From contig JAYWIR010000033.1 of NCBI GenBank assembly GCA_036172245.1, forward strand, positions 186,001 to 250,000: 64,000 bases of DNA, in the 5' to 3' direction. Positions 5,305 to 55,706 of the stretch are shown here, piece by piece (positions within the stretch are counted from its first letter, which is position 1; each line of letters starts with the position of its first letter). The notes beneath the pieces are model-generated. The model was given only the letters and a program-made list of their open reading frames with translations. It made no database searches and was not told the DNA's origin. Origin of the DNA: Raillietiella orientalis. Its lineage: Eukaryota. A program made the translations under genes and the position numbers.

Positions 5305-6556
5305 CCGAACGCCCTGTGGAAATCGACTGCGAGCGCTAGGGCCCCCTTCCCCGCCCGGGGGTCACTTCTCAGTCCGGCTGGCGGCCCCAATGTGGGGTTG
5401 CCGACTTTCCCTATCCCTTTCTTTTCTCTTCTCTGCAGGTGCACCCATGTGCTTGCGAAGAAGCGGTTGCCATCCATACTTCGCCCGGGAACAGCATAAG
5501 TCTGCTCCGGGCTAATTAGGGATTCTGCCACCTGCCCCAGACGCGAAGTCCATAGCCGTGCTATTAACTTGGCGTCCGAATTCACAATCGTGATCGGAGG
5601 CCAGTTCTTTAAATTCCTGACGTCTCCTTCTTTCGGAAGGAGCCTCACTCTGGCTGACCGAAACTAGGCGGGAACATCGCCTTCGCCTCGGATCAGCCTG
5701 ATCAACTTATGCAGCAGGGGTGCCAGCTCTTCCGCGAAGCTCTGAAAGAACTCTACGGGCAAGCCGTCTTCCCCTGGAGCCTTACGCCTCTTGAGTTTTT
5801 TGATACTGGCGAGAACTTCGCCGGTGGTAAAAGGCTTGTAGAGGCTTTCCATCTCCTCCTCCCCTATTGCCGGGGCGCCATCCGGAAGCAAGCGTCGAGA
5901 AACGTTCCGATCCGGGGGCTCCCTAACGTAAAGAGAGGAATAAAAACTTCGCACGAGATGCCGTACCGACGCCGGGAACGAACATTCCCTGCCCTGGGCG
6001 TGCAGCAAGCTGGCCGACCCGGATTGCCAGGCTTGGCGTTCGGCCCCGGCGCTGTACTCGCCCAGGCGACGAACATTAGGGGTTCTTTCGTACCTACGAG
6101 CCTGTAAATAGGCCCGATGGTTGCAAGGACCCTCGTTGAATCCGGAAGGCAGGCGGTCCAGGGGGAACTGCTCACAGAACTCGCGGACGGATTCTTTAAA
6201 AAGGTCCCAGTCCTGGAGATTCCGGAGCGTGACGCCTCTCAGGTATTCGCGAAGGTGTTTCTTCGCACCTGGGAGTCGCGTCCAGTCCTCCGGCAGACGC
6301 CAATCCTAGGATGGCGGTCCTTTGTCTCGAGGCAGCAACTCGAAAATTAACTGGGAATATCCCGACAACGTCGACGCAACCCTCCCCCGTTTGCCGACCC
6401 GTGAACACAGGTCAGCGTCGAGAAAGACGTGGTAGATGCTGCGGACCCTTCCCCTCTCACCCGCGAACAAGATGCGAGCACGCATGGCGGCGCACAACTC
6501 GTTCTTCGCGTTCTCTTGTGTTTCTGGCTCACCTGATAGCAGACGGAGATTGAAAT
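5305..6556 (-). mobile_element. Family T copy 1, downstream part of ORF2 (from APE GDFN to RT AF[D/G])
   Basis: FNLRLLSGEPE, KAPGEDGLP, PEQTYAVPGR, AVDFHRAF; continues exactly from 19876-22213. Confidence 0.9.
6533..6556 (-). repeat. Target-site duplication, downstream copy (partner 19876-19896)
   Basis: Minus strand ATTTCAATCTCCGTCTGCTATCAG versus ATTTCAATCTCCG---GCTATCAG. Confidence 0.85.
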
Positions 6557-9500
6557 TTATCACCCGGTCACGCCGGGGCGTTTATTAATAATAATAAACT
6601 GGTCAGGGACAATGTCCTCAACCAACAGGACGACAGAAAACATAGAAAAATTACCGGCACGCAGGCCTGGTAAACAAACCGCTCGCAGCGTGGGGGAATG
6701 AGGGGAAACAAACAAAAATCAAAAACTGGAGGGAAGGGAAAAGGGTTTTTGGTAAGGCTCCGTACTCACGGGGATTTAAACGATGAGCACCTCGAATGTC
6801 TTGGAGCCTATCGGGACGCGGGTGTAAAAAGAAAATACAAAATTAGTTTATGGAGGGTAGGGCAATGATCACCGGGTTGGCCGCTGATGAGGGTGTGTAA
6901 ACCGGCGGTGTATTGCGGCGAGATTCCTCTTTGTCTCCTCTGTCAAATGAGGCCATCTAGCGGATGCTCCCATGTAGAAGGATGCTTTGCTGATTACCTC
7001 TTGGTGCTGTCCGTTGATTACCAACGCCTGGCGTACGGAAACTATCGCGCGTATGCAACCGATGGTTGCAATCCTTGCGCTTAGTGACAGCCCGCTCGGC
7101 GTGAAGAATCGTCGCAGCAAGTCTCTTGCGGTGTCCACGGGATGCATTAGTGCTGTTGCCAGCCTACGCCACAGTCCTCGTAGGACACCGCAGTCCAGAA
7201 GTAGGTGCGGAATCGACTCCGTCGATCTGCACCGAACGCAGTTCGCAGACGCAAGTCCCCCGGAGTCACGATGCCAACGCACGTTGCACTGAAAACCCCA
7301 GTGAACGAAAAGCAGCACACTTGTTTCCAAGCAAGGAAAAGCAGCGAACTGTCCATACACTGTGAAGGGACTACAAGTTCTTCGGGGGTGACAGCAAGTT
7401 CTTCTGCCCACCGGAGGAGTCCCTTTGCAGTAACACGAGGAGTGGCAACGTCCGCCAACTCACTCGTCTTCCAGGCGCCAAGGATTTTGGTTTTTCCCGC
7501 TATCGTGCAGGAAACCTCCCACCTCGGCGGTTGGTAACTGTCGTTTCTTGCCCTGAGGGCAGACAGCGCTGCGGCAAGAGGCGTGGCAGCCAGGGTAGAA
7601 AACTTCACCTCGTCCTGCAGTACCTCTTTCAAGGATCGTGGAAAAAATTGACGCAGGGGGCGAAGATCTTCAGGGCGTATTCCTTGGAACGCCGCCCAGG
7701 ATTCAACAGACTCCTGCCGCCAAGCTTCAAAGTTCATTGGGAGGCAGGAGATCCACGAGTGAGCTTCCAGAAGTGCGGTCAACTGCCGCAATGGAAACCC
7801 GAAACCCCGCTTCCTGTATTGAGTGCCCGGCAAAAGCGAGAGAAATTCTCCGCTGCCGGCGCATCTCCGCAGGAGAATGCGGGCTGGCACACACAGGGGG
7901 GATGTCCATAGCTGGGCACACAGTGCCAGCAGTCGGAACTGCACCTGCAGTCCGATTCGCTCCATTGTCAAGATACCCAAACCAGCATCCCGACGCGGAG
8001 CTAACAAATCTTTAAGGCGGATCCTGGATCTCGCCGGACCCCAGAGAGCGTTCCTGAGCAGGCGTTTAGCCCGCTGTTTTGCCGCATAGGGGGGGTCCAA
8101 AACAAAAAACAGGGGACGGAGGAGGGGGGCCACAAAGGTGTTCCAAATAGTCGCCCGTTCCTGCAAGGTAAACTTGCCGTTAAAGAACGGGTTGATGGCC
8201 AACTCTGCTTTCTGAAGGCAGTCCGCCCACGCTTCGGCTGTGCCGAAAGCGTCCAACGGAACACCAAGTTACTTAAAGTACCCGCCCGTGGCGATCCCCA
8301 GGCGGATCCAGTCGGACTGCCCCTCCCACGACGTACCCACAGGAACGACCACGCTCTTCTCTATATTCACGTTCATGCCCGCTCCCCGACGAATCAGGTC
8401 GAAGAAATCCTCGACACTGGACGCCGGGGTGGACATGGGGGGCAGAAGAAGCAGGTCATCAGCGTAGGCGGCCACGGCAGGCGTTCCCGGGCAGGAGCTT
8501 GGCAAGTGAGACAGCGTCAGCCTGTATGCTCTTAGCACCAACTCAAAGAAGATGCTGAAGAGCAACGGGCTTAAGCTGTCGCCCTGTCGGATGCCCCTAC
8601 GAACGGGAATACCATACACGCGGCAGCCGCTGAAAGTCATGCAGGTTAGCGCGTGGCGCCAGCACGCGCGCAAATACAGCAGGAGTTGCGCCGGGAACCC
8701 AAGGCGTTCCATAAGCTCCAAAAGCAGCTTCTGGTTTACGCAGTCGAACGCCTTGTGGAGATCGACCGCGACCGCCAGGGCACCTGGCGTTCCCTCCTGC
8801 CGTCGGCGCCTGTTCTTCTTGCCTGCGGCAGTGACTTTCGCAGCAGCCTGGCTTTGCTGCGCCACAACTTCCTGCAGCTGCATCCATGTACGCGCGAAAA
8901 GGATGTTCGCCTCCATGGATCGTCCCGGAACCGCGTAGGTTTGTTCCGGGCTCACCACAGATTCCGCGATACTTCCTAGCCGCGGGACCCACAGCTTGGA
9001 AAACAACTTGACGTCCGAGTTCTCCAAGGTGATCGGACGCCAGTTGTTAAGTTGGCGCAAGTCTCCGCCCTTCGGCAGGAGACGCACCTTCGCTGAGCGG
9101 AAGGAATCCGGGACATTCCCGGATTCCCTCATCCCGGATTCACTCATCAGCGTCGCGAGTTTCAGCATCAAGGGAATGAGCTCCACTGCAAAGCACTGAT
9201 AAAACTCTGCAGGGGGCCCATCCTCGCCTGGCGCCTCTCGTCTCTTCAGCCCAGCGATTGCGGACGAAAATTCATCCACCGTGAAGGGCTCGTCGAGACG
9301 TTCGCCTTCCCTATTCGCCGACAACACGAGCATCCTGAGACAGAAGTATCTCAGAAAGAATATCCTCCGTCGGGGATTCCGCGTACAGCGAGGATAAGTA
9401 GGGTCTCACAATGCGGCGTACTTCGGCTGGGGCCGAACATTTCTGGCCCTTGTCGTGCAACAGCCATGCTGCTTGGACTGCCAGACCTGGCGCTCGGACC

Positions 9501-12410
9501 TCGCCTTGTACTCTGCGAGACGCCCGACATCTGCGCGTCTCGAAAACGTGCGGGCCTGCAGAAAGTCTCTACTGTTGGCCACGCCCTCTCCGAAACCGCG
9601 TGGAAGCCGGTGAAAGGGGAATTGGCAGCAGAACTCGCGGACAGATCTTTTGAGATCGTCCCAGTCCGCAAGTTCTTGAATGGGAAAGCCTCGGAGGTAT
9701 ATACGTAGATGCTTCGCAGCATCCGGTTGGCTAAGCCAATCCGCCTGCATCCTCCAGTTTTGGAACGGAGGCCCCTGCCTGGCGGAAGGATCTCAAACTC
9801 CAACCTGTGGTGGTCAGAAAGCCTAGTCAACAATCTTCCTCTCCAACCCACACGCGAATGCAGGTTTATATCGAGGAAAACGTGATCGAGCGATCTTTCC
9901 ATTCCAGGTTCGCTGACCATCAAGTTGGCGGCGTGCGCGGACGCGCACATCTCGATAAGCAGCGCGCGTTCCCTCGGGGGGCTCCAATCGTCGGAGAGCA
10001 GGCGGACGTTGAAGTCCCCAGCGACGAGGTGCGCCACTTGGAAACCGGAGTTGTTGAGCCAGTGGCTCTGCACCTCACCAAAGAAAGCTACTCTTTCTTC
10101 GAGGTAGCGAGAGCCACTCGGCGCGTAGACGTTCGTAACGACGAGATCGATGGACTCGGACCACTTGATGACAAGCTGGCCTATCCGTCCGTTGTCATCG
10201 AAACGAACACAACGCACCGCTTCCGCCATTTTTCCTCTTACGAGGAACGCGACGCCGCACGTGTGTGCGCCGCCGCACCGCCAATGTAGCGTTCCGCCTG
10301 CGCGCTCCTCGATTTCGGCTGCCTGCTCGTCGGAGATTACGTGAATCTCCTGCAGGAGCGCGAGGTCGAAGGGGCGCAGGGCGTTGGCTACCAATCGGCT
10401 CTTCTCGTCATTCTGTATTCCGTTCACGTTTCAACACGTTACGGACAGACGACAAGAAGACGCGATTCCCGCATTACTGCTGGGAAGGTGGCGGCTTTTT
10501 GCTCGCTTTATCCGGCGAGCAGACGGCGAGCAGCACGACTGGCTGGACCCCGTCGGGTTTCGTGGAGACTTCGCGTTGCTTCGTGGCGAGCGTTGCCTGG
10601 CTGCCTACTTTTGATCGGCGCGCACACGCTTTCGAGCGAGTTGTCCTCGTCTCGGTGATCGGAACGGCATCCATTTCGGAGTCCGACCGGCGCATGTTCG
10701 ATCGGGTTTCGGCCTTCCGCGAAGTAGTGACAGGTTCTGCTGGATTGACAGCTGTCCTGTTGTCATTTTCCGTCACAAGGGCATCGCTTTTGGTGACGGC
10801 TGCTTTCCCGGCGCGCGCGTTCTCAGCGTGCTCACGCGCAGTTGCACGAGGGACCTTTGCTGAAGTCTTCTTTACTTCATTACGGTTCCTCACTTCGCGT
10901 GGCGCCGTAAATGGAGATTCTGCTCCATTGCCATCTTTGAAGCCATCCGCGTCTTTGGACGGGAGCACTTTGGATGGCTTCGACACGCTCGTCATGGACG
11001 CTGCCTCCGGAAGGGCTTTCAATCCCTTCGTTGGCATGGCATCCGCGCCAGTCGAGAGCTTGCTCTCCGACTGCGACGGCGTGAGATTTTCCTCCGCTTT
11101 CGCAGTGTTCGATCGCGACGCGGATTTTTTTTTGCCGACTTTCGAAGTCGACACGACACAACCCTTCTTACCCGATTTGGGCTTATCAGACACTGCAGGA
11201 GGTGAAGGAATGGATCTGACGGTACTGGAAGTGTCCTTACCGCCGTTGTCCATTGACGTCCCCGCCGGCTGCTCGAACTCCGAAAGAGCCGGGCGTGCTT
11301 GGTTAGGACAGCTATTGCGCCTATGGGGACTTACCATTGCCCCGGATTCCCCGCACCCTTTCTTTTGCGGCTCCCCTGCCGCGAGAGGGGGCGCGCAGGG
11401 CTTCGCTTGCGAGGTTTCCTGCTGCTTTGGGGCGACATTCCGCCTCGCGTATTTCGGAATTTCTGCCGTGGGGTCTCCAGATTTTCCGCAGATTTTTTCT
11501 TTTTATCCGCGCTTTGTTTCTTAAGATGAAGCTCCGCGGCTGCCTTTTTTCGCAAAAGATCCGAGCATTTTTTCAATTGGTGCCCGGATAGTTTGCAATA
11601 ACGGCAATTTCCAGAGGAGCATTTATCCAAATAATGCCCCTTCTTCCCGCATTGCTCGCACGTTCTTACTTTGCCCACGAACCACAGGTGAACGACCGTG
11701 TCTTTCACCTGTAGTTTCGTGGGCAGCAGAAGGCGGTCCGGCATTGTAAGCCGGACTCCAGCGACTCCGCTATGTATGGACGGGAAGTCCTTGAGGTTGC
11801 TACGCATCCTCCACAGCGCATGGACCGTGGCGAATTTCGCGAACGCGTTCCGAATGTCAATATCGGAGATTTCCGACTCGATGTCGAAAATCTCCGCCAC
11901 AAATGAGTCGTCCATGGCGGCCGGGAAGACCTTCTGGCCACGGATCGACAACGGGGTGCGCAGCAAGCGTTGCACAAGTGCAGCGTCTTTGCAACGCACC
12001 TTCAAGTACCTCATGTCTTTTACGGGCATAATGGCGAGAAGGTCCTCCTCCCGCACGCCAACACGGGTCAGTTCATCGTTGAACTGATTCCCGTCGCGCG
12101 CAGAAAGAAAACCACTCACCTTATATCGGAGAGCAGGTCTATTGCCTTGGGCTACGTATGCCCGCAACTCCGACTCGTCGAGTGGTTTCCCTTTGACGGC
12201 TGCTGTGGCAGCAACGTCAGCAAAACTCCTCTCCATTGGCGACAAAGACGAAGTAAAGGCGGCCGTCGGTTCCGCGATTGCAGATCCGGATGCTGTTCCT
12301 CCAACTTCAGTAGCTTCAAGTTGGGTCGATAACGTCGTCAAAATGTACGACGCCAAGATCAAGCGGATGAAAGCACGGAGACAAGAGCGAAGAAAAACAC
12401 GTCCGCACTC
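6557..12410 (-). mobile_element. Family G copy A, full-length, frameshifted
   Basis: 5' GAGTGCGGACGTG at 12410; ORF1 about 12333-10474; ORF2 10474-6869 in fragments with YADD and CVRCRSTESIPHLLLDC; 3' hairpin 6557-6586. Confidence 0.95.
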
Positions 12411-12732
12411 GATTGAAATTTATCACCCGGTCACGCCGGGGCGTTTATTAATAATAATAAACTGGTCAGGGACAATGTCCCCAACCAAGAGAACGACAGA
12501 GAACATAGAAAAATTACCGGCACGCAGGCCAGGTAAACAAACCGCTCGCAGCGTAAGGGGAATGAGGGGAAACAAACAAAAATCAAAAACTGGAGGGAAG
12601 GGTAACGGGTTTTTGGTTAGGCTCCGTACTCACGGGGATTTATACGATGAGCACCTAAAATGTTCCGGAGCCTATGGGGACGCGGGTGTAAAAAGAAAAT
12701 ACAAATTTAGTTTATGGAGTGTAGGGCAATGA

Positions 12733-15700
12733 TCACCGGGTTGGCCGCTGATGAGGGTGTGTAAACCGGCGGTGTATTGCGGCGAGATTCCTCTTTGTCT
12801 CCTCTGTCAAATGAGGCCATCTAGCGGATGCTCCCATGTAGAAGGATGCTTTGCTGATTACCTCTTGGTGCTGTCCGTTGATTACCAACGCCTGGCGGAC
12901 GGAAACTATCGCGCGTATGCAACCGATGGTTGCAATCCTTGCGCTTAGTGAAAGCCAGCTCGGCGTGAAGAATCGTCGCAGCAAGTCTCTTGTGGTGTCC
13001 ACAAGATGCAATAGTGCTGTTACCAGCCTACGCCACAGTCCTTGTAGGACACCGCAGTCCAGAAGTAGGTGCGGAATCGACTCCGTCGATCCGCACCGAA
13101 CGCAGTTCGCAGACGCAAGTCCCCCGGAGTCACGATGACAACGCTCGTTGCACTGAAAACCCCAGTGAACGAAAAGCAGCACGGCTTGTTTCCAAGCAAG
13201 GGGGAGCAGCGAACTGTCCATACACTGTGGAGAGACTACAAGTTCTTCGGGGGTGACAGCAAGTTCTTCTGCCCACCGGAGGAGTCCCTTTGCAGTAACA
13301 CGAGGAGTGGCGGCGTCCGCCAACTCACTTGTCTTCCAGGTGCCAAGGAGTTTGGTTCTTCCCGCTATCGTGCAGGAAACCTCCCACCTCGCCGGTTGGT
13401 AACTGTCGTTTCTTGCCCTGAGGGCAGACAGCGCTGCGGCAAGGGGCGTGGCAGCCAGGATAGAAAACTTCACCTCGTCCTGCAGTACTTCTTCCAAGGA
13501 TCGTGGAAAAAATTGGCGCAGGGGGCGAAGATCTTCAGGGCGTATTCCTTGGAACGCCGCCCAGGATTCAACAGACTCCTGCCGCCAAGCTTCAAAGTTC
13601 ATTGGGCGGCAGGAGATCCAAGAGTGTGCTTCCAGAAGTGCGGTCAACTGCCGCAATGGAAACCCGAAACCCCGCTTCCTGTATTGAGGGCCCGGCAAAA
13701 GCGAGAGAAATCCTCCGCTGCCGGCGCATCTCCGCAGGAGAATGCGAGCTGGCACACACAGGGGGGATGTCCATAGCTGGGCACAAAGTGCCAGCAGTCG
13801 GAACTGCACCTGCAGTCCGATTCGCTCCATTGTCAGGATACCCAAACCAGCATCCCGACGCGGAGCTGACAAATCTTTAAGGCGGATCCTGGATCTCGCC
13901 GGACCCCAGAGAGCGTTCCTCAGCAGGCGCTTAGCCCGCTGTTTTGCCGCATAGGGGGGGTCCAAAACAAAAAACAGGGGACGGAGGAGGGGGGCCACAA
14001 AGGTGTTCCAAATAGTCGCCCGTTCCTGCAAGGTAAACTTGCCGTTAAAGAACGGGCTGATGGCCAACTCTGCTTTCTGAAGACAGTCCGCTCACGCTTC
14101 GGCTGCGCCGAAAGCGCCCAACGGAACGCCAAGGTACTTAAAGTACCCGCCCGTGGGGATCCCCAGGCGGATCCAGTCGGACTGCCCCTCCCACGACGTA
14201 CCCACAGGAACGACCACGCTCTTCTCTCTGTTCACGCTCACGCCCGCTCCCCGACGAATCAGGTCGAAGAAATCCTCGACACTAGACGCCGGGGTGGACA
14301 TAAGGAGCAGAAGAAGCAGGTCATCAGCGTAGGCGGCCACGGCAGGCGTTCCCGGGCAGGAGCTTGGCAAGTGAGACAGCATCAGCCTGTATGCTCTTAG
14401 CACCAACTCAAAGAAGATGCTGAAGAGCAACGGGCTTAAGCTGTCGCCCTGTCGCATGCCCCTACGAACGGAAATACCATACACGCGGCAGCCGCTAAAA
14501 GTGATGCAGGTTAGCGCGTGGCGCCAGCACGCGCGCAAATACAGCAGGAGTTGCGCCGGGAACCCAAGGCGTTCCATAAGCTCCAAAAGCAGCTTCTGGT
14601 TTACGCAGTCGAACGCCTTGTGGAGATCGACCGCGACCTCCAAGGCACCTGGCGTTCGCTCCTGCCGTCGGCGCCTGTTCTTTTTGCCTGCGGCAGTGAC
14701 TTTCGCAGCAGCCTGGCTTTGCTGCGCCACAACTTCCTGCAGCTGCATCCATGTACGCGCGAAAAGGATGTTCGCCTCCATGGATCGTCCCGGAACCGCG
14801 TAGGTTTGTTCCGGGCTCACCACAGATTCCGCGATTCTTCCTAGCCGCGCGACCCACAGCTTGGAAAACAACTTGACGTCCGAGTTCACCAAGGTGATCG
14901 GACACCAGTTGTTAAGTTGGCGCAAGTCTCCGCCTTTCGGCAGGAGAGGCACCTTCGCTGAGCGGAAGGAATCAGGGACATTCCCGGATTCACTCATCAG
15001 CGTCGCGAGTTTAAGCATCAAGGGAATGAGCTCCACTGCAAAGCACTGATAAAAGTCTGCAGGGAGCCCATCCTCGCCTGGCGCCTTTCGTCTCTTCAGC
15101 CCAGCAATGGCGGACGAAAATTCATCCGCCGTGAAGGGCTCGTCGAGACGTTCGCGTTCCTCCTCGCCGACAACACGAGCATCCTGAGACAGGAGTATCT
15201 CAGAAAGAATATCCTCCGTCGGGGATTCCTCGTAGAGCGAGGAGTAGTAGCGTCTCACAATGCGGCGTACTTCGGCTGGGGCCGAACATTCCTGGCCCTT
15301 GTCGTCCAACAGGCATGCTGCTCCGGTCTGCCAGACCTGGCGCTCGGCCCTCGCCTTGTACTCTGCGAGACGCCCGACATTTGCGCGTCTCGAAAACGTG
15401 CGGGCCTGCAGAAAGTCTCTACTGTTGGCCACGCCATCTCCGAAACCGCGTGGAAGCCGGTGAAAGGGGAATTGGCAACAGAACTCGCGGACAGATCTTT
15501 TGAGATCGTCCCAGTCCGCAAGTTCTTGAATGGCAAAGCCCCGGAGGTATCCACGTAGATGCTCCGCAGCCTCCGGTTGGCTAAGCCAATCCGCCTGCAT
15601 CCTCCAGCTTTGCAACGGAGGCCCCCTGCCTGGCGGAAGGATCTCAAACTCCAACCTGTGGTGGTCAGAAAGCTCAGTCAACAATCTTCCTCTCCTACCC

Positions 15701-16326
15701 ACACGCGAATGCAGGTTTTCATCGAGTAAAACGTGATCGAGCGATCTTTCCATTCCAGGTTCGCTGACCATCAAGTTGGCGGCGTGCACGGACCCGCACA
15801 TCTCGATGGGCAGCGCGCGCTCTCTCGGGCGGCTCCAATCGTCGGAGAGCAGGCGGACGTTGAAGTCCCCAGCGACGAGGTGCGCCACTTGGAAGCCGGA
15901 GTTGTCGAACCACTGGCTCTGCACCTCACCAAAGAAAGCTTCTGTTTCTTCGAGGTAGCGAGAGCCACTCGGCGCGTAGACGTTCGTAACGACGAGATCG
16001 ATGGACTCGGACCACTTGATGACAAGCTGGCCTATCCGTCCGTTGTCATCGAAACGAACACTACGCACCGCTTCCGCCATTTTTCCTCTTACGTGGAAGG
16101 CGACGCCGCACGTGTGTGCGCCGCCGCACCGCCAATGTAGCGTTCCGCCTGCGCGCTCCTCGATTACGGCTGCCTGCTCGTCGGAGATTACGTGAATCTC
16201 CTGCAGCAGCGCGAGGTCGAAGGGGCGCAGGGCGTTGGCTACTAATCGCCTCTTTTCGTCGTTCTGCAGTCCGTTCACGTTCCAACACGTTACGGACAGA
16301 CGACGAGAAGACGCGATTCCTTGCAT
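12733..16326 (-). pseudogene. ORF2p of copy B (APE, RT, CCHC; about 1197 aa) with one in-frame TGA at 14092-14094
   Basis: ORFs 14092-16326 and 12733-14067 share a frame; paralogues have TGG (AEAW) at the stop. Confidence 0.95.
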
Positions 16327-18248
16327 TACTGCTGGGAAGGTGGCAGCTTTTTGCTCGCTTTATCCGGCGAGCAGACGGCGAGCAGCACGACTGGCTGGAG
16401 GGGACGGTCGCCACCGTCCTCTGTCGTGCTGCATGCATGTAATGCCTCCACGCCAGGCGGAACCCCGTCGGGTTTCGTGGAGACTTCGCGTTGCTTCGTG
16501 GCGAGCGTTGCCTGGCTGCCTACTTTTGATCGGCGCGCACACGCTTTCGATCGAGTTGTCCTCGTCTCGGTGATCGGAACGGCATCCTTTTCGGAGTCCG
16601 ACCGGCGCATGTTCGATCGGGTTTCGGCAATCCGCGAAGCAGTGACAGGTTCTGCTGGATTGACAGCTGTCCTGTTTTCGTTTTCCGTCACCAGAGCATC
16701 GCTTTTGGTGACGGCTGCTTTCCCGGCGCGCGCGTTTTCAGCGTGCTCACGCGCAGTTGCACGAGGGACCTTTGCTGAAGTCTTCTTTACGTCATTACGG
16801 TTCCTCACTTCGCGTGGCGCCGTAAATGGAGATTGTGCTCCATGGCCATCTTTGAAGCCATCCGCGTCTTTGGACGGGAGCACTTTCGATGGCTCCGACA
16901 CGCTCGTCATGGACGCTGCTTTCGGAAGGGCTTTTAATCCCTTCGTTGGCATGTCATCCGCGCCAGTCGAGAGCTTGCTCTCCGACTGCGACGGCGTGAG
17001 ATTTTTCTCCGCTTTCGCGGTGTTGGATCGCGACGCGGATTTTTTTTTTCCGACTTTCGAAGTCGACACGGCACAACCCTTCTTACCCGATTTGGGCTTC
17101 TCAGCCAGTGCAGGAGGTGAAGGGATGGATCTGACGGTACTGGAAGTGTCCTTACCGCCGTTGTCCATTGGCGTCCCCGCCGGTTGCTCGAACTCCGAAA
17201 AAGCCGGGCGTGCTTGGGAAGGACAGCTATTGCGCCTAGGGGGACTTACCATTGCCCCGGATTCCCCGCACCGTTTCTTTTGCGGCTCCCCTGCCGCGAG
17301 AGGGGGTGCGCAGGGCTTCGCGTGCGAGGTTTCCTGCTGCTTTGGGGCGACATTCCGCCTCGCGTTTTTACCGAATTTCTGCCGTGGGTTCTCCAGGTTT
17401 TTCGCAGATTTTTTCTTTTTATCCGCGCTTTGTTTTTTAAAATGGAGCTCCGCGGCTGCCTTTTTTCGCAAAAGATCCGGGCAATTTTTTAATTGGTGCC
17501 CGGATAGTTTGCAATAACGGCATTTTCCAGAGGGGCATTTATCCAAACAATGCCCCTCCTTCCCGCATTGCTCGCACGTTTTTACTTTGCCCACCAACCA
17601 CAGGTGAACGACCGTGTCTTTCACCTGTAGTTTGGTGGGCAGCAGACGGCGGTCCGGCATTGTAAGCCGGACTCCAGCGACTCCGCTGTGTATGGACGGG
17701 AAGTCCTTGAGGTTGCTACTCACCCTCCACAGCGCATGGACCGTGGCGAATTTCGCCAACGCGTTCCGAATATCAGTATCGGAGATTTCCGACTCGATGT
17801 CGAAAATCTCCACCACAAATGAGTCGTCCATGGCGGCCGGGAAGACCTTCTGGCCACGGATCGACAACGGGGTGCGCAGCAAGCGTTGCACAAGTGCAGC
17901 GTCTTTGCAACGCACCTTCAAATAGCCCATGTCTTTTACGGGCATAATGGCGAGAAGGTCCTCCTCCCGCACGCCAACACGGGTCAGTTCATCGTTGAAC
18001 TGATTCCCGTCGCGCGCAGAAAGAAAGCCACTCACCTTATATCGGAGAGCAGGTCTATAGCCTTGGGCTACGTATGCCCGCAACTCCGACCCGTCGAGTG
18101 GTTTCCCTTTGACGGCTGCTGTGGCAGCAACGTCAGCAAAACTCCTCTCCATCGGCGAGAAAGACGAAGTGGAGGCGGCCGTCGGTTCCGCGATTGCAGA
18201 TCCGGATGCTGTTCCTTTAACTTCAGTAGCTTCAAGTTGGGTCGACAT
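16326..18248 (-). CDS. ORF1p of copy B (RRM-like domain, two CCHC knuckles, long basic low-complexity tail)
   Basis: Uninterrupted ORF from MSTQLEATEV; CEQCGKEGHCLDKC and CRYCKLSGHQLKNC. Confidence 0.9.
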   Translation of the reverse strand: MSTQLEATEVKGTASGSAIAEPTAASTSSFSPMERSFADVAATAAVKGKPLDGSELRAYVAQGYRPALRYKVSGFLSARDGNQFNDELTRVGVREEDLLAIMPVKDMGYLKVRCKDAALVQRLLRTPLSIRGQKVFPAAMDDSFVVEIFDIESEISDTDIRNALAKFATVHALWRVSSNLKDFPSIHSGVAGVRLTMPDRRLLPTKLQVKDTVVHLWLVGKVKTCEQCGKEGHCLDKCPSGKCRYCKLSGHQLKNCPDLLRKKAAAELHFKKQSADKKKKSAKNLENPRQKFGKNARRNVAPKQQETSHAKPCAPPLAAGEPQKKRCGESGAMVSPPRRNSCPSQARPAFSEFEQPAGTPMDNGGKDTSSTVRSIPSPPALAEKPKSGKKGCAVSTSKVGKKKSASRSNTAKAEKNLTPSQSESKLSTGADDMPTKGLKALPKAASMTSVSEPSKVLPSKDADGFKDGHGAQSPFTAPREVRNRNDVKKTSAKVPRATAREHAENARAGKAAVTKSDALVTENENRTAVNPAEPVTASRIAETRSNMRRSDSEKDAVPITETRTTRSKACARRSKVGSQATLATKQREVSTKPDGVPPGVEALHACSTTEDGGDRPLQPVVLLAVCSPDKASKKLPPSQQ

Positions 18249-18334
18249 CGTCGTCAAAATGTACGACGCCAAGATGAAGCGGATGAAAGCACGGAGACGA
18301 GAGCGAAGAAAACACGTCCGCACTCGATTGAAAT

Positions 18335-19875
18335 TTATCACCCGGTCACGCCGGGGCGTTTTTTAATAATAATAAACTGGTCAGGGACAATGTCCCCAAC
18401 CAACAGAACGACAGAGAACATAGAAAAATTACCGCCACGCAGGCCTGGTAAACAAACCGCTCGCAGCGTGGGGGGAATGAGGGGAAACAAACAAAAATCA
18501 AAAACTGGAGGGAAGGGAACAGGGTTTTTGGTTAGGCTCCGTACTCACGGGGATTTAAACGATGAGCACCTCAAATGTTCCGGAGCCTATGGGGACGCGG
18601 GTGTAAAAAGAAAATACAAATTTAGTTTATGGAGGGTAGGGCAATGATCACCGGGTTGGCCGCTGATGAGGGTGTGTAAACCGGCGGTGTATTGCGGCGA
18701 GATTCCTCTTTGTCTCCTCTGTCAATTGAGGCCATCTAGCGGATGCTCCCATGTAGAAGGATGCTTTGCTGATTACCTCTTCGTGCTGTCCGTTGAGTAC
18801 CAACGCCTGGCGGACGGAAACTATCGCGCGCATGCAACCGATGGTTGCAATCCTTGCGCTTAGTGAAAGCCCGCTCGGCGTGAAGAATCGTCGCAGCAAG
18901 TCTCTTGCGGTGTCCACGGGATGCAATAGTGCTGTTGCCAGCCTACGCCACAGTCCTTGTAGGACACCGCAGTCCAGAAGTAGGTGCGTAATCGACTCCG
19001 TCGATCCGCACCGAACGCAGTTCGCAGACGCAAGTCCCCCAGAGTCACGATGCCAACGCTCGTTGCACTGAAAACCCCAGTGAACGAAGAGCAGCACGGC
19101 TTGTTTCCAAGCAAGGGGGAGCAGCGCACTGTCAACACACTGTGGAGGGACTACAAGTTCTTCGGAGGTGACAGCAAATTCTTCTGCCCACCGGAGGACT
19201 CCCTTTGAAGTACAACGAGGATTTGCGGCGTCCGCCAAATCACTTGTCTTCCAGGCGCCAAGGAGTTTTGTTTTCCCCGCTATCGTGCAGGAAACCTCCC
19301 ACCTTGCCGGTTGGCAGCTGTCGTGTCTTGCCCTGAAAGCAGACAGCGCTGCGGCGAGAGGCGTGGCAGCCAGGGTAGAAAACTTCACCTCGTCCTGCAG
19401 TACTTCTTCCAAGGATCGTGGAAAAAATTGGCGCAGGGGGCGAAGATCTTCAGGACGTATTCCTTGCAACGCCGCCCAGGATTCAACAGACTCCTGCCGC
19501 CAAGCTTCAAAGTTCATTATGCGGCAGGAGATCCAAGAGTGTGCTTCCAGAAGTGCGGTCAACTGCCGTAATGGAAAACCGAAACCCCGCTTCCTATATT
19601 GAGTGCCCGGCAAAAGCGAGAGAAATCCTCCGCTGCCGGCGCATCTCCGCAGGAGAATGCGAGCTGGCACACACAGGGGGGATGTCCATAGCTGGGCACA
19701 CAGTGCCAGCAGTCGGACCTGCACCTGCAGTCCGATTCGCTCCATTGTCAGGATACCCAAACCAGCATCCCGACGCGGAGCTGACAAATCTTTAAGGCGG
19801 ATCCTGGATCTCGCCGGAATCGAGCAGAGAGCGTTTTTGAGCAGCGCCAGCCCGCTGTTTTGCCGCATAGGGGTT
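18335..19875 (-). mobile_element. Family G copy C, 5'-truncated
   Basis: ORF2 C-terminus 18648-19868 and 3' UTR near-identical to copies A and B. Confidence 0.95.
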
Positions 19876-22213
19876 CTGATAGCCGGAGATTGAAATCTCC
19901 CGCTATCAGGTGAGCCTTCCGCACGTTCGTGTCCGCCAGCCAGTCGCGCTTCAGGGATTCCAGCAGCCTGGTGCGGTCGCTGTATCCCTGTTTACCGCTG
20001 GGGGCGTACACATTCGTGACGATCAGTTCGATCGAGTCGGACCAGCTGAGAATCAGCTAACCGTCCCGACCGTCGTCAGCGAAGCGCACGCCCTTCACGG
20101 CCGCGTCGATGGCCGGCTTCACGAAGAACGCGACCCCGCAGGTGTTGCGGAGGCCGCACCGCCAATACAACCGACCCCTTGCGATCGTCTCGATTTCCTG
20201 GGCGTCTGTCGTGGTGATCACGTGGATCTCCTGCAGCAGGGCCAGGTCGAGCTCACGCAGGGTGTCGGCCGTATCTCGCCTGTTACCGTCGTCGCGCAGC
20301 TTGTTCACGTTCCAAGGGGCGGCGCGAATCCGACGGCGACTGGCGAGCCCAGGTGTCAGTCCTGGGAAAACGACGATGCGGCGTCCGCCACCTGCTGGGG
20401 CGGGACGCTAGGTGGAGGAGGAGGGTCAGGCGCTGCGTGCACCTGGTCCCCCTCCTCCATGGGTATCGGCGCGTCGAGCGGGTCACCCTAAGGTGGGGTC
20501 GCGCCTACCTGTTGGCCCTCCTCCATGGGGGCGGGCTGTTCAGGCTCGGCGACTGCAGGTAGCACTTCGCCCCCCTGCTCACCCTCCTTTATGGGGGTGG
20601 CCGGCTCGACGGCTTCCGAGCGTGGGAGTTCCCCCTCCGGGATTCCCACGCTACCGCTAACTTCCTGTTTCTCCTCCTCGCTGGTGGAGGGGAGGCGCCT
20701 CCTTGGTTTCTGGGACTTGCGTCCCGACTTCCTAGGGGGTGCCTCCGAGGAGGAAGATGCACTTCCGGCCCTTAAATCCGACTCACCTATGGGGGCCTTT
20801 TTCGCGGGAGCCGGCCTTCGCACGGCCTTGCGTGAGGGGTTCTCACGCTCCGCCAGCGTGGCCGCGAGCTCCTCCGCCGCCTTTGCGAACGCGGCGTCCT
20901 CGGTGTCGACCGGCGCGTCGCGCGGCTCACCCTCTGTTTGCACTGAGGGTTCGCCGTCGCGAACTTCGGGTGCGACGGAAACGGCGAGGGGAGGCTCGTC
21001 GCCCCGGGTGGCATCTTCCGGAACGCCGATACGTTCCAGTGCCCCCGTGCACTTGCGTACGGTTTTCGAACGCGGCCCGGGTTTTTTTGCCTTACCGGCC
21101 GGCTTCTCTTTCTTCTCCCTTAAAGGAGCTTTTCTCTCTTTTCTAGCTGCTACAAGTTGCCAGCCTTCTTCACCTTTCGCCTCTTGGCAAGGTTTATCCT
21201 CCGCTTGCTTTTGTTTGCAAGTCTTTTCTTTTGGAGGTTGAGGATCTGGCAGCTTCAGCCGGCCAGCGTCCGCCTTAGGTCTTGTGACCTTTAGTGCGCG
21301 TTTCCCCTGCGCCTTTTTCGCGGCAGGAGGAACCGGGGTGGGGCGTTTTGGGCACACACGTCGAACGTGGCTCTTCTCCCCGCACATGTGGTATTGGATG
21401 CTAGGATACCTCTTGGGATGGTGTCCTACGGTATCGCAGTAGCCGCAATCCCAGGGCTTTCCCACGTACCAGAGGTCCACGCTCTCTTGCGCAACCTCCA
21501 GCTTGTGAAGAAGCCCACAGTCCTTACTCACGGTTACCCGCGCTGCAGCCTGGCCTCCGAAATGGCTATTGAAGCCTTTAAAGATTGTTGGCTTAGGCCA
21601 CAGCGCGTGCACCTCACCGAGCTTCTGTAGTTCTTGTGCTACCGCAGAGCGTGTCATACGGCTCGTTATTCCAGTGAGATGGACCACCACGGAGCGGTGC
21701 ATCGTCACCGGCAAGATCTTGCGGCCGTCGACGTTCAGCGGGTTCGTGATCAGAGTTTGAGCCAAAGTGATCTCCTTGCACACCACCTCGACTCGCTGAC
21801 CTCCGCTGAGAACGGACAAACCGTCAAGATCTTGTTCTCTTACTCCAGCGTTTTGCAGCGCTTTCGGAAACGCGCGTGCCGTTTTTCCATCAAATAGGGG
21901 CCTACCTGTTACACCAAGCTGGGCTTGTACCCAGCTGCCCGGTAGGCCGCCATCTCGGCCACGGTTTCCGCGCTCGGCGCGGCCACCATTTCGCTCCAGC
22001 TCCTCGCCTTGGGCGGCGAGGGCGATTACGGGGCGGATGCCCCTGATTCTGTAGGCTGTGGGGGTGGGCAAGCCTTCCTCATACCTACCTCCATCGTGGT
22101 GTCCTCAGGCATTGCTGCCATCGGACACCAACGATGTTCCACACGAACACACAGAAAGAAAAAAACCGCTTCCTGTCGACTCACTCGGGAGCGAAGGAAA
22201 AATACGTCCACTC
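19876..22213 (-). mobile_element. Family T copy 1, upstream part (5' UTR, ORF1 22121-20356, APE N-terminus)
   Basis: 5' GAGTGGACGT at 22213; SEAPPRKSGRKSQK ORF1 signature; LLQEIHV, YAPSG, IAGDFNLR. Confidence 0.92.
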
Positions 22214-32891: not shown

Positions 32892-33018
32892 TTGCCACCC
32901 GGGTACGCCTGGTACGTTTATTGATCACAATTCTCAATAAATCGTGGTATAAGGCCCAACTGCGGCCTTAAACACGGAACCTGTCGGCACAGCGGAGCGG
33001 AGCCCGGCAGGGCACCTC
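32892..33018 (-). mobile_element. Family T 3'-terminal stub (about 125 bp)
   Basis: Matches 28022-28150. Confidence 0.85.
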
Positions 33019-33173
33019 TGCTGCTTCAGTTGATGAGGCTGATCGGAGACGAGAGCGATGTTCCCGCCTCCTTTCGGTCAGCCAGGGTGAGGGTCCTTAA
33101 GAAAGGGTGAGACCACAGGGATCAAGGAACAGGCGTCCGATCACGATTGTGAATACGGACGCCGAGTTGCTAG
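33019..33173 (+). mobile_element. Short RT N-terminal fragment
   Basis: DVPASFRSARVR, RPITIVNTDAELL. Confidence 0.75.
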
Positions 33174-33250
33174 TTGCCATCCGGTCACGCCGGGTAGTTT
33201 ATTATAAATTCTCTACAATTCGTGGTACGAGGCCCCACTGCAACCAACTC
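33174..33250 (-). mobile_element. Family K 3'-terminal stub (about 75 bp)
   Basis: Matches 36120-36195. Confidence 0.8.
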
Positions 33251-35144
33251 GGACGTGAGTGCGAACCGGAAAAAGAGCGTGATTGTACCTGTAGGAGCGT
33301 CGTGGGAGGGTCATAAACACTGGATCCGCCTGGGGATCCCAACGGCGGCGTATTTCAAGTACCTTGGAGTTCCGCTGGGCAATCTCTGTTCTGTCGAGGC
33401 GTGGTCGGACTGCCATCAAGAGTTAGAGTTGGCAGCCAGCCCGTTCACTTACGTCAAGTTCACCTTACCGGAACAGGCAACAATTTGGAACACCTTTGTA
33501 GCACCTTCCTTCGACCCCTGTTTTTTGTCTCGGACCCCCCCTACGCGGCCAAAGAGCGGGCAAATCGCCTGCTAAGGAACCCACTCGGGGGTAATGCGCG
33601 ATTCAGGATCCGCCTAAAAAACTTCGCGGCTCCAGTCGGGATGCTGGTCTTGGCATCCTTAGAATGTAGAGAATCGGACTGCAAGTGCAGTTGAGGATGC
33701 TCGCACTTTGTGCCGAGCTATGGACTTTCCCCCTGTGTGCGCCTCCGCGCATCCTCCTAAGAAGGTGTGCAGGCAGTGAAGGACCTCTTTCCTTGGTGCC
33801 CGGCATGCGTCACAGGAAACAGGGATTTGGCTACCCTCTGAAGAAAATCGCCTCCCTATTGGAAGCCAATGCGTGGATTTCCTGCTGCTCGATGAACTAC
33901 AATGCTTGGCGGCAGGAAACCATTGATTCTTGGGCTGTATCCTTAGGTATGAGCCGTAAAGATCACCGCCCCCTGCGTCGATTCCAACCTTCGTCGCTCG
34001 AAGATGTCATGCGGGACGAGGTGAAGTTTTCCTCCCTGGCCGCCACGTCCCTTGCCGAAGCACTTTCTGCACTCGAGGATCGAGATGACAGTAGCCAGCC
34101 ATGGAAGTGGTAGTTCTTCCGCACCATTGCAGGAAGAACAAAGCCAGTTGGCGAATGGGCCACGAGCGAGTTCGCAGATGCCGCCAATCCTGGTGCAACA
34201 CCAAAAAGATTACTTCGGTGGGGAGAAGCACTAAGTGTTGCCCACAGGGAACTTACAATCCCTCCTTGGTGTTTGGACGGTTCGGTGATTTCCCTTGCAT
34301 GGAAGCAAGACGTCTTGCTCTTCTTACACTGCGGCTTGCGCTATTACGAGCGGCGACACCGAGTTTCCGGTGGGGTAGCTTCTCCCTACTGTGTTCGTTG
34401 CGGGGCGACGGAGTCGTTCCCGCACCTTGTTATGGGCTGCGGTGCCCTCCATGAACTCTGGAGGAGGCTAGCATCAGCTCTCCCGCTTCCAAGTGACACC
34501 GCTTGAGAAGTGCTGCGACGGTTCTTCCAGCCACAAGGACTTTCGATGGTTGCGACGATTTCCACTGTTGGGTGCATCCGCGGCATCGTCACGATCCGAG
34601 ACGTGATGGAGAACCCGGGACAGCAATGTTGTGCCACCAGGAAGGCAGCCTACTTCATCAGGTGGGCAGCTGGGTGGCGACACTTATGGGAAGACACAAC
34701 GGAGCAGCTAACCGGTATCCATCGCCGGATGAGAAACGGCTTAGAACGACGAACCCGGTGATCCGCCCTCATTTTATTTTTAATTGATTTTTTTGTTCTC
34801 GCATCCTTTTCCCTATACCGTCCGCAGTGGTTTTGTTGCTGAAACTTCCGAGTTTCCCGGTGACTGCGGAGCGTCCCTAAAGTTCCCTGCCCCACTACTA
34901 CAGTTTAGAATTTTCTTTTTTTTGCTTTTTTTTTGTTTGTTTTTTGTTTTGTGTTTTTGTTTTTTTTTGTTTTTTTTGGTTTTGTTTTTGTTTTCAGACT
35001 CCCCTCAGTCGTCCGTGTTCTTCCGTTTTCCTGGCCTGCGTGCCAGTGGTGAATCTCCGCTGCATGTCTTTATAGTCGTGGCCTGGAAATGACTGTTTCT
35101 AGCTCGTTTACATCAATAAACGTCCCTGCGTGACCGGGTGATAA
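33251..35144 (+). mobile_element. Family G-related element, 3' part
   Basis: YFKYLGVP, DEVKFSSLAAT, CVRCGATESFPHL; long T-rich 3' UTR; ends GCGTGACCGGGTGATAA like copies A-C. Confidence 0.9.
34915..34995 (+). repeat. T-rich (TTTTG)n-like low-complexity tract in a retrotransposon 3' UTR
   Basis: Seen directly; shorter equivalents follow each ORF2 stop. Confidence 0.8.
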
Positions 35145-36119
35145 ATTTCAACGTTCGTTTGAACCAGATAGTTAGAATCACGAGCGTGCCCTGGTCAACG
35201 AGGTGTGCATGGCGGTGCACACCTGTAATTAGTTGGTCAGTGCACTGAGGAAGGAGGACAGAATCGACCACGTGTTCCTTGATCAGCACCTGTGCCCTCG
35301 CGTGGGCAGGCGTGGCAATTTACGGTACGACCTGTCCGACCATCGCCCGATAGTTCTCGAGATCCAACCGCGCGACAGGGGCCGCCCCTCGTCAGCGTAG
35401 CGTATACCAGGGGACTGGCTGTAGCTCCCGGACGCGGCGCAACATCTCCACACGTTCATACTGAGCTTCCTGCTGCGGACACAGTAGGATTGGGACCGCT
35501 TCAAGCGGTCGGTCCAGAAGTTCTGAGGCCAATTCTCTCTGCACCGCCTACCTACGTGTTTTGGGAATAGGGTCCGTAACGAACGAGCTTACCTGCAGGC
35601 CCGTCGTTACGCGAAGATCCCCGAGATCCGCAGGATCGCGAAATACAAAGAAGGAGCCGAGAGGCAGGCCTGGTAGTCCGAATCGGTTAGCTTGCTGGAC
35701 GATCAGGGCGAGAAGCACTCGGCACCCGCCCAAATCCGCGGCATCCTGCGGAGATACTACTCCTCCCTGCATGCCAGGGTGCCTCCGGAGAGAAATGTAT
35801 CCCGACTCTTGCTTCCGGAAGGCGCTCCGATGATCGAGTAGGAGGAGACAAAGCCCCTGGACGAGATTTTCTTGGACATCGCAAAGCTCAGGAAGCGCAA
35901 GGCTCCAGGGGAGGACGGCCTGTTCGCGGATTTTTATCAAACTTTCGTCACTGAGCTCATCCCCCTGGTGCTATCACACCATGCTGATACGCGAGACAGG
36001 TGACGTTCCCTCCTCGTTTTCTTCGGCGAAGGTGCGGCTCCTTCCTAAGAGAGGAGACCTGAGGAGAATGAACAACTGGCGTCCCATCACAATATTGAAT
36101 GCGGACGTCAAGTTGCTAG
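35145..36119 (+). mobile_element. Family F copy c, internal fragment bounded by GDFN and KLL
   Basis: Colinear with 1974-2970; many stops. Confidence 0.88.
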
Positions 36120-52975: not shown

Positions 52976-52993
52976 CTCCGAATCCCCGCTGTG

Positions 52994-55706
52994 GAGAGCG
53001 GACGTGCTTTTCCTGCGCTTCGCCTGCGTGGCAAAGCGAGTGTTTTTTCTTCTTGAGTGATTTGTGCGTGCACATCGTCGGTGTCCGATGGCAGCGTTGC
53101 CAGAGCACACCGCGATGGAAGTAGGCGTGATGAAGGCTTGTTCGTCCCCACAGCCTACTGGATCAGGGGCATCCGCCCCGGAATCGTCCCCGGCGACGCC
53201 GAGGTCATGGAGCGCCATGGTGGCCGCTCTTAGCGTGGAAGCCATGGCCGAGATGGAAGCCTACAAGAAAGCGGGGTATAAACCCTCGCTAGTCTACAAG
53301 GTAGGCAACCTTTTCGATGGGCGAACTGCACGCGCCTTTACGAAGGCGCTGCAGAACGCCAATATTTTTGAAAAAGATCTCGAGGGCCTCTGCGTCCTCA
53401 GCGACGGACAGCGGGTCGAGGTGGTATGCAAGGATATCACCTTGGCCCGACACCAGATCACCGACCCGCTGATCATTGATGGTCGGAAGATCTTGCCGAT
53501 AACGATGGACGGCTCGGTGGTGGTCCATCTCACTGGGATCTCCAGTCGCATGACAAGGTCAGCGGTTCTAGAACAGCTACAAAAGCACGGAGAAGTGCAC
53601 GCGTTGTGGCCGAAGTCTACGATTTTCGAAGGCTACAATAGCCTTTTCGGAGGTCAAGCTGCGGCGCGTATCACAGTAAAAGAGGGTGTTGCGCTTCCCC
53701 ACAAGCTGTAGGTCTGCCAAGAAGCAATGGACCTCTGGTACGTGGGGAAACGCCAATTTTGTGGCTACTGCATTGCAGTAGGGCATCTACGCAAAAGGTG
53801 CTTGAACATTGTGTGCCACCTATGCGGCGAAAAGGGTCATGTTTGCGCGTGTGCCCCAAGCGCCCCACCCCGGTGCCCCCTGCTGCCAAAAAGGCGCAGT
53901 GAAACTGTGGAAAGCTGGTAGAATGACCAGCTCGCGAAAATAGCCGTTCCCAACTGCCAGCCTCCCTTCCTCCCGTACAGACGTCGGAGGAAAGAGCTCC
54001 CGTGAACGCGGAAATGGAGGAGGGTTGGCAGCTGGTTCAGGTTAGAAAAGAGAAAAAAAAGAAAGTGACGTTGGAAGAAAATTCAGAGAAGAAAACTGCC
54101 GGCAACAAGAAAAAAGCCGCGCCGCTTCCAAAAAAAAAACTCCGCGAATGCTCGGTGGCACTGGAACGCTTAGCCGTTCCTGCCGAGTCCGCCCGCGGCA
54201 ATGTTCGCGGAACAGCTGATGCGGACGCGATGAACACTCGCGTTGACGAGCCCAATCTACGTTTACAGGGTGAAACGCGAGACTCCCGCGCCGTCAACGA
54301 TGACGCCGCGCTCGATAAGGTCGCGGAGCAGCCCGTGGCAACGGTCGCCGCTAGCGAAGACGCGGCCTTCGAGAAAGCGGCGGAGGAGCTCGCAGCAACG
54401 CTCGCCGAGCGCGAAACCCCGTCGCGCAAGGGCGTACGCAGGTCGACTCCGACGGAGAAGGCCCCCGCAGGTGAGTGCGAGCTGGGGGCCGCAAGCGGAT
54501 CCTCCTCCTCGGAGGCACCCCCCAGGAAGTCGGGACGCAAGTCCCAGAAAGCCAGAAGGCGCCTCCCCTCTGCCAGCGAGGAGGAGAAACCGGAAGGAAG
54601 CGGCAGCGTGGGAATCCCGGAGGGGGAATATTCACGCCCGGAAGCCGTCGAGTCGGCCACCCCCATGGAGGAGGTAGAGCAGGGGGGTGAAGTCCTCCCT
54701 GCAGTCGCGAAACCTGAGCAGCATAAACCCATGGAGGAAGGCGAACAGGTAGGCGCGACTCCACCTGCGGGTGATCCGGCCGACGCGCCGGCACCGATGG
54801 AGGAGAAGGAAAAGGTGCCTTCAGTACCTGTCCCCCCTCCCCCTCCACCTAGCGTCTTGCCCCAGCAGGTAGCGGACGCCGCATCGCCTTTTTCCCTGGA
54901 CTAACACCTGGGCTCGCCAGTCGCCGTCGGATTCGCGCGGCCTGTTGGAACGTCAACGGGCTGCGCGACGACGGCAACAGGCGAGATACAGCCGACACCC
55001 TGCGTGAGCTCGACCTGGCGCTGCTGCAGGAGATCCACGTGATCACCGCGGCAGACGCCCAGGAAATCGAAACGATCGCGTGGCGTCGGCTGTATTGGCG
55101 ATGCGGCCTCCGCAACACCTGCGGGGTCGCGTTCTTCGTGGAGCCGGCCATCGACGCTGCCGTAAAGGCCATGCGGTTTGATGACGACGGTCGGATCGGT
55201 CAGCTGATTCTCAGCTGGTCCGACTCGATCGACCTAATCGTCACAAACGTGTATGGCCCCAGCGGCAAACAGGGTTACCGCGACCGCACCAGGCTGCTGG
55301 AAACCCTGAAGCGCGACTGGCTGGCGGATACCAATGTGCAAAAGGCGCACCTGATAGCGGGAGATTTCAATCTCCGCCTGCTAACAGGTGAGCCGGAAAC
55401 ACAAGTGAACGCGATGAACGAGTTGTGCGCTGCCATGCGTACGCGCAACTTGTTCGCGGGTGAGAAAGGAATGGTCCGCAGCATCGACCACGTCTTCCTG
55501 GACGCTGACCTGTGTTCACGCGTCGGCAAACGGGGGAGGGTTGTGTCGACGTTGTCGGACCATTCCCGGCTAATTTTCCAGATGCGGCCTCGCGACAAAG
55601 GACCGCCATCCAGGGATTGGCGTCTGCCGGGGGACTGGACGCGACTCTCAGGTGCGAAGGAACACCTTCGCGAATACCTGAGAGGCGTCACGCTCCGGAA
55701 TCTCCA
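52994..55706 (+). mobile_element. Family T copy 6, 5' part (ORF1 53088-54904, APE domain)
   Basis: 5' GAGAGCGGACGTG; SEAPPRKSGRKSQK; IAGDFN, LSDH. Confidence 0.93.

Follow-up and report, generated by a model that had tools for sequence, protein, structure and literature searches.

A LINE lineage that probably integrates at the GDFN codons of other LINEs in a nested LINE cluster of Raillietiella orientalis

Site-specific long interspersed nuclear elements (LINEs) are known for ribosomal DNA, small nuclear RNA (snRNA) genes, telomeres and microsatellites. Target-specific LINEs of the apurinic/apyrimidinic endonuclease (APE) type belong to the Tx1 and R1 clades (PMC4640811), and in both Tx1L and R1Bm the specificity is described as residing in the endonuclease (PMC1950540). 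Tx1L of Xenopus laevis, a member of the Tx1 group within the L1 superclade, has a single integration sequence, which lies in the DNA transposon Tx1D (PMC1950540). Here we describe a LINE family, G, and a diverged relative, G-rel, in 64,000 nucleotides of Raillietiella orientalis DNA (assembly GCA_036172245.1, contig JAYWIR010000033.1, positions 186,001 to 250,000 of the forward strand; hereafter the window), and we consider it probable, at about 0.75, that they represent an L1/Tx1-like lineage that integrates sequence-specifically at G^ATTTCAA in other LINEs. G would thereby resemble Tx1L, an APE-type LINE whose endonuclease directs it with high specificity to a target inside another mobile element (PMC1950540). 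It differs from Tx1L in that the target is coding sequence of other LINEs, namely the codons of the catalytic motif of their endonuclease.

R1Bm and other R1-clade LINEs, together with Utopia and Keno of the U2 snRNA genes, resemble what is proposed for G in a fixed nick site, a fixed orientation, a target duplication and occasional tandem insertion (Utopia-1_NVit is occasionally found in tandem in U2 genes; PMC4640811), whereas their targets are multicopy RNA genes of the host and that of G lies in other retrotransposons. The large arrays formed by one LINE family, Cnl1, in Cryptococcus recall the G array described below, but they are tied to the telomere as subtelomeric arrays, and the excerpts of that account name no coding-motif site (bioRxiv 10.1101/2021.08.11.455996). 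Nested clusters of copies within earlier copies, as in the window, have been reported for Zepp and ZeppL, L1-clade LINEs of the green algae Coccomyxa and Chlamydomonas that 'target existing copies' (bioRxiv 10.1101/2020.06.13.149070, PMC3446292, PMC9940879). These clusters are candidate centromeres in green algae. Such nesting is an established pattern; the accounts, to the extent that their text was available, give no base-level target or base-level explanation, no link to the codons of a conserved motif and no partition of sites between families. Zepp carries a poly(A) tail, whereas the elements of the window end in GATAA, GAAAA or GGCAAC. A limited full-text literature search returned no LINE reported to aim at the catalytic-motif codons of other LINEs, nor families sharing out such motifs, a prior description in the original Zepp work being possible.

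Two G-type insertions at one base of the GDFN codons

The window (57% G+C) is densely packed with related LINEs, named here by letters, which lie recursively within one another (G in T, T in F2, F in T, and so on). Read directly, the sequence at 35115-35165 runs ...AATAAACGTCCCTGCGTGACCGGGTGATAA/ATTTCAACGTTCGTTTGAACC, where the bar marks 35144/35145. At this point the 3' end of G-rel (GGGTGATAA) adjoins a fragment of family F, termed F3, which begins at the A of G/ATTTCAAC. The break splits the codon for Asp in GDFN, a motif of the endonuclease, and an intact F copy reads GCA GGC G/AT TTC AAC GTT CGC (AGDFNVR) at the same place. BLAST alignment of F3 with the uninterrupted F copy starts at exactly 35145 = 1974 (1974-2965 against 35145-36115, 83.6%). 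In a multiple alignment the empty sites of F and T have G immediately before ATTTC, where every G 3' end has A, which places the break to within one base. At its other end, F3 stops at 36118, where it is cut by the 3' end of the minus-strand element H.

The second insertion lies on the minus strand, where one family T copy is split by an array of G units (coordinates in Table 1). The array is flanked by a 24-bp target duplication that starts with ATTTCAATC; its right copy is complete and its left copy retains 21 nt after a 3-bp loss, the left part of T ending in ...GGGAG ATTTCAATCTCCG-GCTATCAG (19896-19876). This duplication and the empty paralogous site in another T copy prove that the G array is an insertion. 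Because the left duplicate stands beside the truncated interior of a G unit, with no G 3' end before it, ATTTCAATC must be target rather than element sequence. In the multiple alignment, register and orientation at 6556/6557 match those at 35145.

The array consists of 2.3 head-to-tail units that are 94-95.5% alike (self-BLAST). At both of its inner G-G junctions the G 3' end is followed by ATTTCAATC and then by the G 5' terminus GAGTGCGGACG, and this 9-bp spacer is identical to the first 9 bp of the T target duplication. Such an arrangement would be expected from repeated integration into a regenerated site, with the top strand cut 9 bp downstream. Unequal crossing-over was also considered as the origin of the array; it was rejected because the units differ in their 5' extent (one truncated, two full length), and is further ruled out by spacers of 9 bp instead of the 24-bp duplication.

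The exact 13-mer GACCGGGTGATAA, which lies at the G 3' end, is present four times in the window (6557-, 12420-, 18335- and 35132+). The word ATTTCAA occurs only ten times on both strands of the 64-kb window (128 kb), yet it follows four of four exact G-type 3' ends, so that its presence there is not due to chance. Eight of the ten occurrences are at GDFN-related places, namely the empty sites at 1974, 44797 and 55364, the two T duplicates, F3 and the two spacers, and the other two (26919 and 33352) are unrelated. According to self-BLAST, families F and T are about 70% alike, whereas the split T copy is 86-91% identical to the T copy with an empty site and F3 is 83.6% identical to the corresponding F copy. 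Each recipient is thus closer to an empty-site relative than F is to T, indicating that the two insertions are independent and postdate the F/T split. By our own estimate, two random insertions into a 6-kb element (about 2 x 6000 positions) would share base and orientation in about 1 in 10^4 cases.

These results bear out a sequence-only reading of the locus, which had described the join at 35115..35165 as an independent insertion of a diverged G relative into a family F copy, from the DFNVR codons onward, in the register and orientation of the insertion at 6557 in family T. On the same reading, ATTTCAA would be enriched in G-family 3' flanks elsewhere. The word follows the four ends in the window and the G 3' end in three contigs of a public run, X1, with which the genome-wide part was approximated. 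X1 shares 21% of sampled words with the window and was mapped on positions 18000-36200 at 80% likeness, 6 of 361 loose ends being listed. Among the matches listed, the three contigs match the G 3' end and the ATTTCAATC that follows it (18326-18334), beyond which they depart from the window sequence; their consensus in G sense, ATTTCAATC/TCCGCCTGCTATCAGTTGATCC..., represents a T-like GDFN flank that differs from the window flank at 6556 in about 4-5 of 30 letters. A metagenome scan for the 20-nt G 3' end gave only two matches, both prokaryote-like and without LINE context, which we regard as chance.

The G lineage and a proposed route of integration

Open reading frame (ORF) 1 of the G unit contains two CCHC knuckles when read in translation, and Pfam gave no match for ORF1 or for the C-terminal part of ORF2. 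A piece of G ORF2 matches PF03372 Exo_endo_phos (E 5e-11) and PF00078 RVT_1 (E 2.6e-18), and the translation shows a C-terminal Cys/His motif after the reverse transcriptase (RT). The endonuclease, whose domain takes up about residues 1-245 of ORF2, can be aligned with human L1-EN (E 7e-5 to 2.5e-4), with AGDFN of G opposite MGDFN of L1 and its D and N at D145 and N147. In the published experiments D145 is treated as catalytic (D145A being the catalytic-dead control) and D145A/N147A is dead in retrotransposition (PMC1950540), in agreement with the earlier statement that GDFN holds APE catalytic residues. Human L1 ORF2p (E 2e-42) is the solved structure most similar to the G RT, R2 proteins scoring 6e-15 or worse, and a protein database search gave nine matches, the best 24% identical, with no close relatives and no named algal element. 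Judging from domain content and RT similarity, G appears to be an APE-type non-long-terminal-repeat retrotransposon (LINE) of L1/Tx1-like affinity. In all G-type copies the terminal GGGTGATAA is followed at once by the target, with neither a poly(A) stretch nor a simple-repeat tail in between; since stringent LINEs that lack poly(A) are known, the missing tail leaves the L1/Tx1-like superclade possible.

Unit G-b, whose ORF2 (1207 codons) is open except for one TGA at 14092-14094(-), is a recent and almost intact copy. A variant genetic code was considered for this stop and rejected in favour of a plain TGG to TGA change, since seven other copies have TGG. The 5' termini of T and T-ref are closely similar to that of G, and those of E, T3 and G3 look like looser variants. 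This similarity across families indicates that GAGTGCGGACG-type ends are true 5' ends and suggests a shared transcription start or internal promoter. Full-length starts are found at 12400-12410(-), 18315-18325(-), 52994-53004, 22205-22213(-), 30387-30395 and 39014-39023, of which those of G, T and T-ref share GAGWG(C)GGACGTG.

Over 554 columns of the C-terminal part of ORF2, G-rel is 54-56% identical to G as opposed to 30-38% to eight other elements, and a tree of this part unites G and G-rel with support of 96/98. At the nucleotide level the two are about 73% alike (self-BLAST), and they have the last 33 nt in common (Table 1). On these measures G-rel is the nearest relative of G. Its left boundary is approximate, and a short minus-strand 3'-end fragment of family X (~60-70 nt) lies directly upstream. 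A short 3' hairpin was predicted in all seven ends folded; those of G and G-rel are no more stable than shuffled sequences (z -0.2 to -0.9), the prediction beats shuffles only in two F copies (z -2.6 and -3.2), and the other ends range from -0.9 to +0.3. We therefore give the hairpin prediction no weight.

We propose that the G-clade endonuclease would nick the bottom strand opposite G^ATTTCAA (putative target GGNGATTTCAAY), a word that other LINE families carry in their endonuclease gene as codons of the catalytic motif GDFN. The freed 3' end would then prime reverse transcription from the RNA end ...GGUGAUAA (target-primed reverse transcription), and the top strand would be cut 9-24 bp downstream, so that the target would be duplicated and thereby regenerated. 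Later copies landing in the regenerated site would give rise to head-to-tail arrays with target-derived spacers. In this scheme the endonuclease would set the specificity, the RT would recognize the short 3' hairpin, and read-through into the downstream target copy may help exact priming. The specificity may accordingly reside in the endonuclease, or may be helped by pairing of a read-through RNA tail with the nicked target, two contributions that the sequence cannot separate. Because the target encodes catalytic residues it is conserved, and hence present in diverged LINE families; it also lies in dispensable DNA and would itself be restored at each integration.

Points against and rival explanations

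Several observations weigh against site-specific integration of the G lineage. The array could be one read-through transcript of a donor array, in which case the window may hold two integrations, not four. Neither self-BLAST nor tblastn found the upstream half of the interrupted F copy in the window, and no target duplication was found for the event at 35145, so that the insertion there is deduced from its 3' junction; the sequence immediately upstream of G-rel holds a 5'-truncated piece from a different family together with a T-like RT segment. Three perfect G/ATTTCAA sites (1974, 44797 and 55364) are unoccupied, and a hand count gives an occupancy of 2/5 ATTTCAA sites against 0/8 variant sites, including G's own, a difference that is suggestive but, taken by itself, not significant (p ~0.13). 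Other G flanks may also be present in X1, given the 6 of 361 loose ends listed. Finally, the 5' end of a G-like element, G3, abuts an unrelated antisense site without ATTTCAA, and the G clade as a whole is thus not uniform in its target.

G3 (59348-59480 and 59358-60260) is known from its 5' part only, with a full 5' end (CAGTGCAGACGTG...) at 59356. Its ORF1 is 50% identical to that of G, compared with 28-36% for other families, and the element adjoins not GDFN but an F-like element in antisense, in the endonuclease region at residue ~62-68. G3 may be an exception to the target of the clade or belong to a subfamily with another target. With regard to the region upstream of G-rel, 33011-33172 had been suspected to be the missing F half; this was rejected, the segment being T-like (83% to 5566-5724) and neither F nor G-rel. 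Between element E and G-rel, positions 32891-33245 hold short 5'-truncated minus-strand 3' ends of Y and X together with the T-like RT piece. These pieces do not form a simple nest, and the right halves that the recipients should have are absent, so that deletions or rearrangements occurred.

If the targeting is real, it could still be set mainly by RNA, with a read-through tail (AUUUCAAUC...) annealing to any nick in homologous GDFN codons and so homing to donor-like flanks. Every G 3' end in the window does have a target copy downstream that read-through would include, the junctions are base-exact, and read-through tails reportedly play such a role for R1Bm. The nick, however, must still hit the same base in F and T, and beyond ATTTCAA the F flank (CGTTCG) departs from the T flank (TCTCCG), so that a T-type tail pairs over 7 nt only. 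We consider this account unlikely as the main determinant, although it is compatible with endonuclease specificity and both may act together. It is also conceivable that ATTTCAA(TC) belongs to the G element itself, as a 3' tail or 5' leader, and that the joins arose at a conserved word by microhomology-mediated end joining or template switching instead of targeted nicking, since the word stands at all four G 3' ends, including two G-G junctions. This is very unlikely. In the left T flank, ATTTCAATCTCCG...GCTATCAG adjoins the interior of a truncated G unit where no G 3' end is close by, and the empty copies of T and F contain the word as part of their own coding frame. Family K, which is related, shares the terminal GGGTGATAA yet runs on into different sequence, and G and G-rel would each need a tail that happened to equal the preceding 7-9 nt of their recipient.

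Two further accounts deny that the coincidence reflects two targeted events. A single old insertion, inherited through duplication and divergence of the composite, would explain why the divergence of the inserts (G and G-rel, ~73% at the nucleotide level) resembles that of the recipients (F and T, ~70%). Against it, F3 is 83.6% and the interrupted T copy 86-91% identical to copies with empty sites, and LINE insertions are not known to excise precisely. A separate target duplication marks the insertion in T, where the G units are 94-95.5% alike. We regard this history as highly improbable. That two random insertions coincided by chance, or that the assembly is chimeric at a repeat, finds some footing in a dense repeat nest, where assemblies can err, and among the X1 matches listed no contig bridges 35144/35145. 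Against it stand the estimate of about 1 in 10^4 given above, a shared word of 7 nt that is too short to mislead an assembler, and the occurrence of the same junction type in X1 contigs, which together make it scarcely credible.

If site-specific integration of G is confirmed, a LINE aimed at catalytic-motif codons would supply a base-level mechanism for nested clusters such as those of Zepp and ZeppL. The target, held constant by selection on the enzyme of the prey, would be a safe harbour that spreads with the prey, and its regeneration at every insertion would make clusters and arrays arise automatically. An arms race would be predicted at synonymous sites of the GDFN, KAFD and NxDAKL codons, and the families would provide natural APE-type endonucleases, each with a defined recognition sequence of its own.

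Fixed insertion sites of other families

In tblastn searches, block ends cluster at four ORF2 positions (G numbering): GDFN 164, LPRGFG 302, NSDVKL 492 and KAFD 581. At the three positions other than GDFN, families besides G behave as G does, and two of these positions fall within conserved RT motifs (NxDxKL and, in motif A, KAFD). Elements K and T-ref are parted only by an 18-bp remnant of the LPxGFG site, a head-to-tail join of mixed families. At the NxDxKLL site the flanks of X and H both begin with the word TAGCAACT, and the recipient of X is 83% identical to a T copy with an empty site. Among 15 insertion events, close pairs in the same orientation number 11 against 1.44 expected, a value reached in 3 of 100000 simulations, in a post hoc comparison with rough coordinates.

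Table 1 Coordinates of the insertions, target sites and related features in the window
Feature	Position	Strand	Details and basis
Right copy of target duplication in T, ATTTCAATCTCCGTCTGCTATCAG	6533..6556	-	Directly after the last G 3' end
Left copy of target duplication in T	19876..19896	-	Same 24 nt minus TCT; then AA (19874-19875), then truncated G-a from 19873
Empty target site in another family T copy	55364..55387	+	Sequence comparison
Empty target site, uninterrupted F copy	1970..1986	+	GGC G/ATTTCAACGTTCG, break point 1974
F3, the family F fragment that received G-rel, spanning the GDFN Asp codon to the NxDxKLL codons	35145..36118	+	83.6% to uninterrupted F from 1974; alignment
G array	6557..19873	-	G-c 6557-12410, G-b 12420-18325, G-a (5'-truncated) 18335-19873; self-BLAST, junctions, domains
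Spacers of G array	12411-12419, 18326-18334	-	Both ATTTCAATC, 9 bp
G's own GDFN codons, GGG GAC TTC AAC, unoccupied	15859..15870 (second copy 10008-10019)	-	One base off target; variant GACTTCAAC
G-rel, 5'-truncated G-clade LINE, ORF2 residue ~707 (G numbering) to 3' end, no poly(A)	33246..35144	+	tblastn with G ORF2 pieces, identity table, tree
T/G-rich simple tract in G-rel 3' untranslated region (UTR)	34909..35001	+	Sequence read; treated as repeat in read mapping; similar tracts in other 3' UTRs
Conserved 3' terminus common to G and G-rel: AATAAA, short GC stem, terminal GATAA	35112..35144	+	Sole alignable 3' UTR part, 33 nt, 91%
LPxGFG site (residue ~302-307), antisense	52967-53004; 28013-28030(-); 32882-32900(-); 22205-22221(-); 39006-39023		3' ends K 52975, d 28021, Y 32891
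LPxGFG site, antisense, 5' ends	T 22213, T-ref 52994, T3 39014
NxDxKLL site (residue ~492-498), antisense	33166-33184(-); 36112-36129(-); 30378-30395		3' ends X 33173, H 36119; 5' end E 30387 in third recipient
KAFD site, antisense, within Asp codon (residue ~584)	5296-5313; 25133-25149		3' ends F-ref 5304, F2 25141, both GGGTGAAAA, two recipients

We tentatively suggest, at somewhat less than even odds, that a guild of related LINE families divides fixed ORF2 sites as private, base-exact targets, three of the four lying in highly conserved motifs, such that LINEs parasitize LINEs. The G clade would hold GDFN in sense orientation, F the KAFD site, H, X and E the NxDxKLL site, and T, K, d and Y the LPxGFG site, the last three sites all in antisense. 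Were this so, purifying selection on the catalytic residues of the prey would keep the target available across diverged families, and each insertion would disable a rival and regenerate the site, so that self-nesting clusters would grow. Escape would be possible through synonymous change only, as in G's own GAC TTC AAC.

Two other elements were observed in the window. An F-like 3' end (...ACCCGGGTTTCAAT) lies in antisense in a T copy at ORF2 residue ~280-285 (55697-55719(-)), a single case in the window. At 61211-63943(-) there is a distant LINE with APE and RT domains, 21-29% identical to G ORF2 and with the motif GDLN, which runs off the window end.

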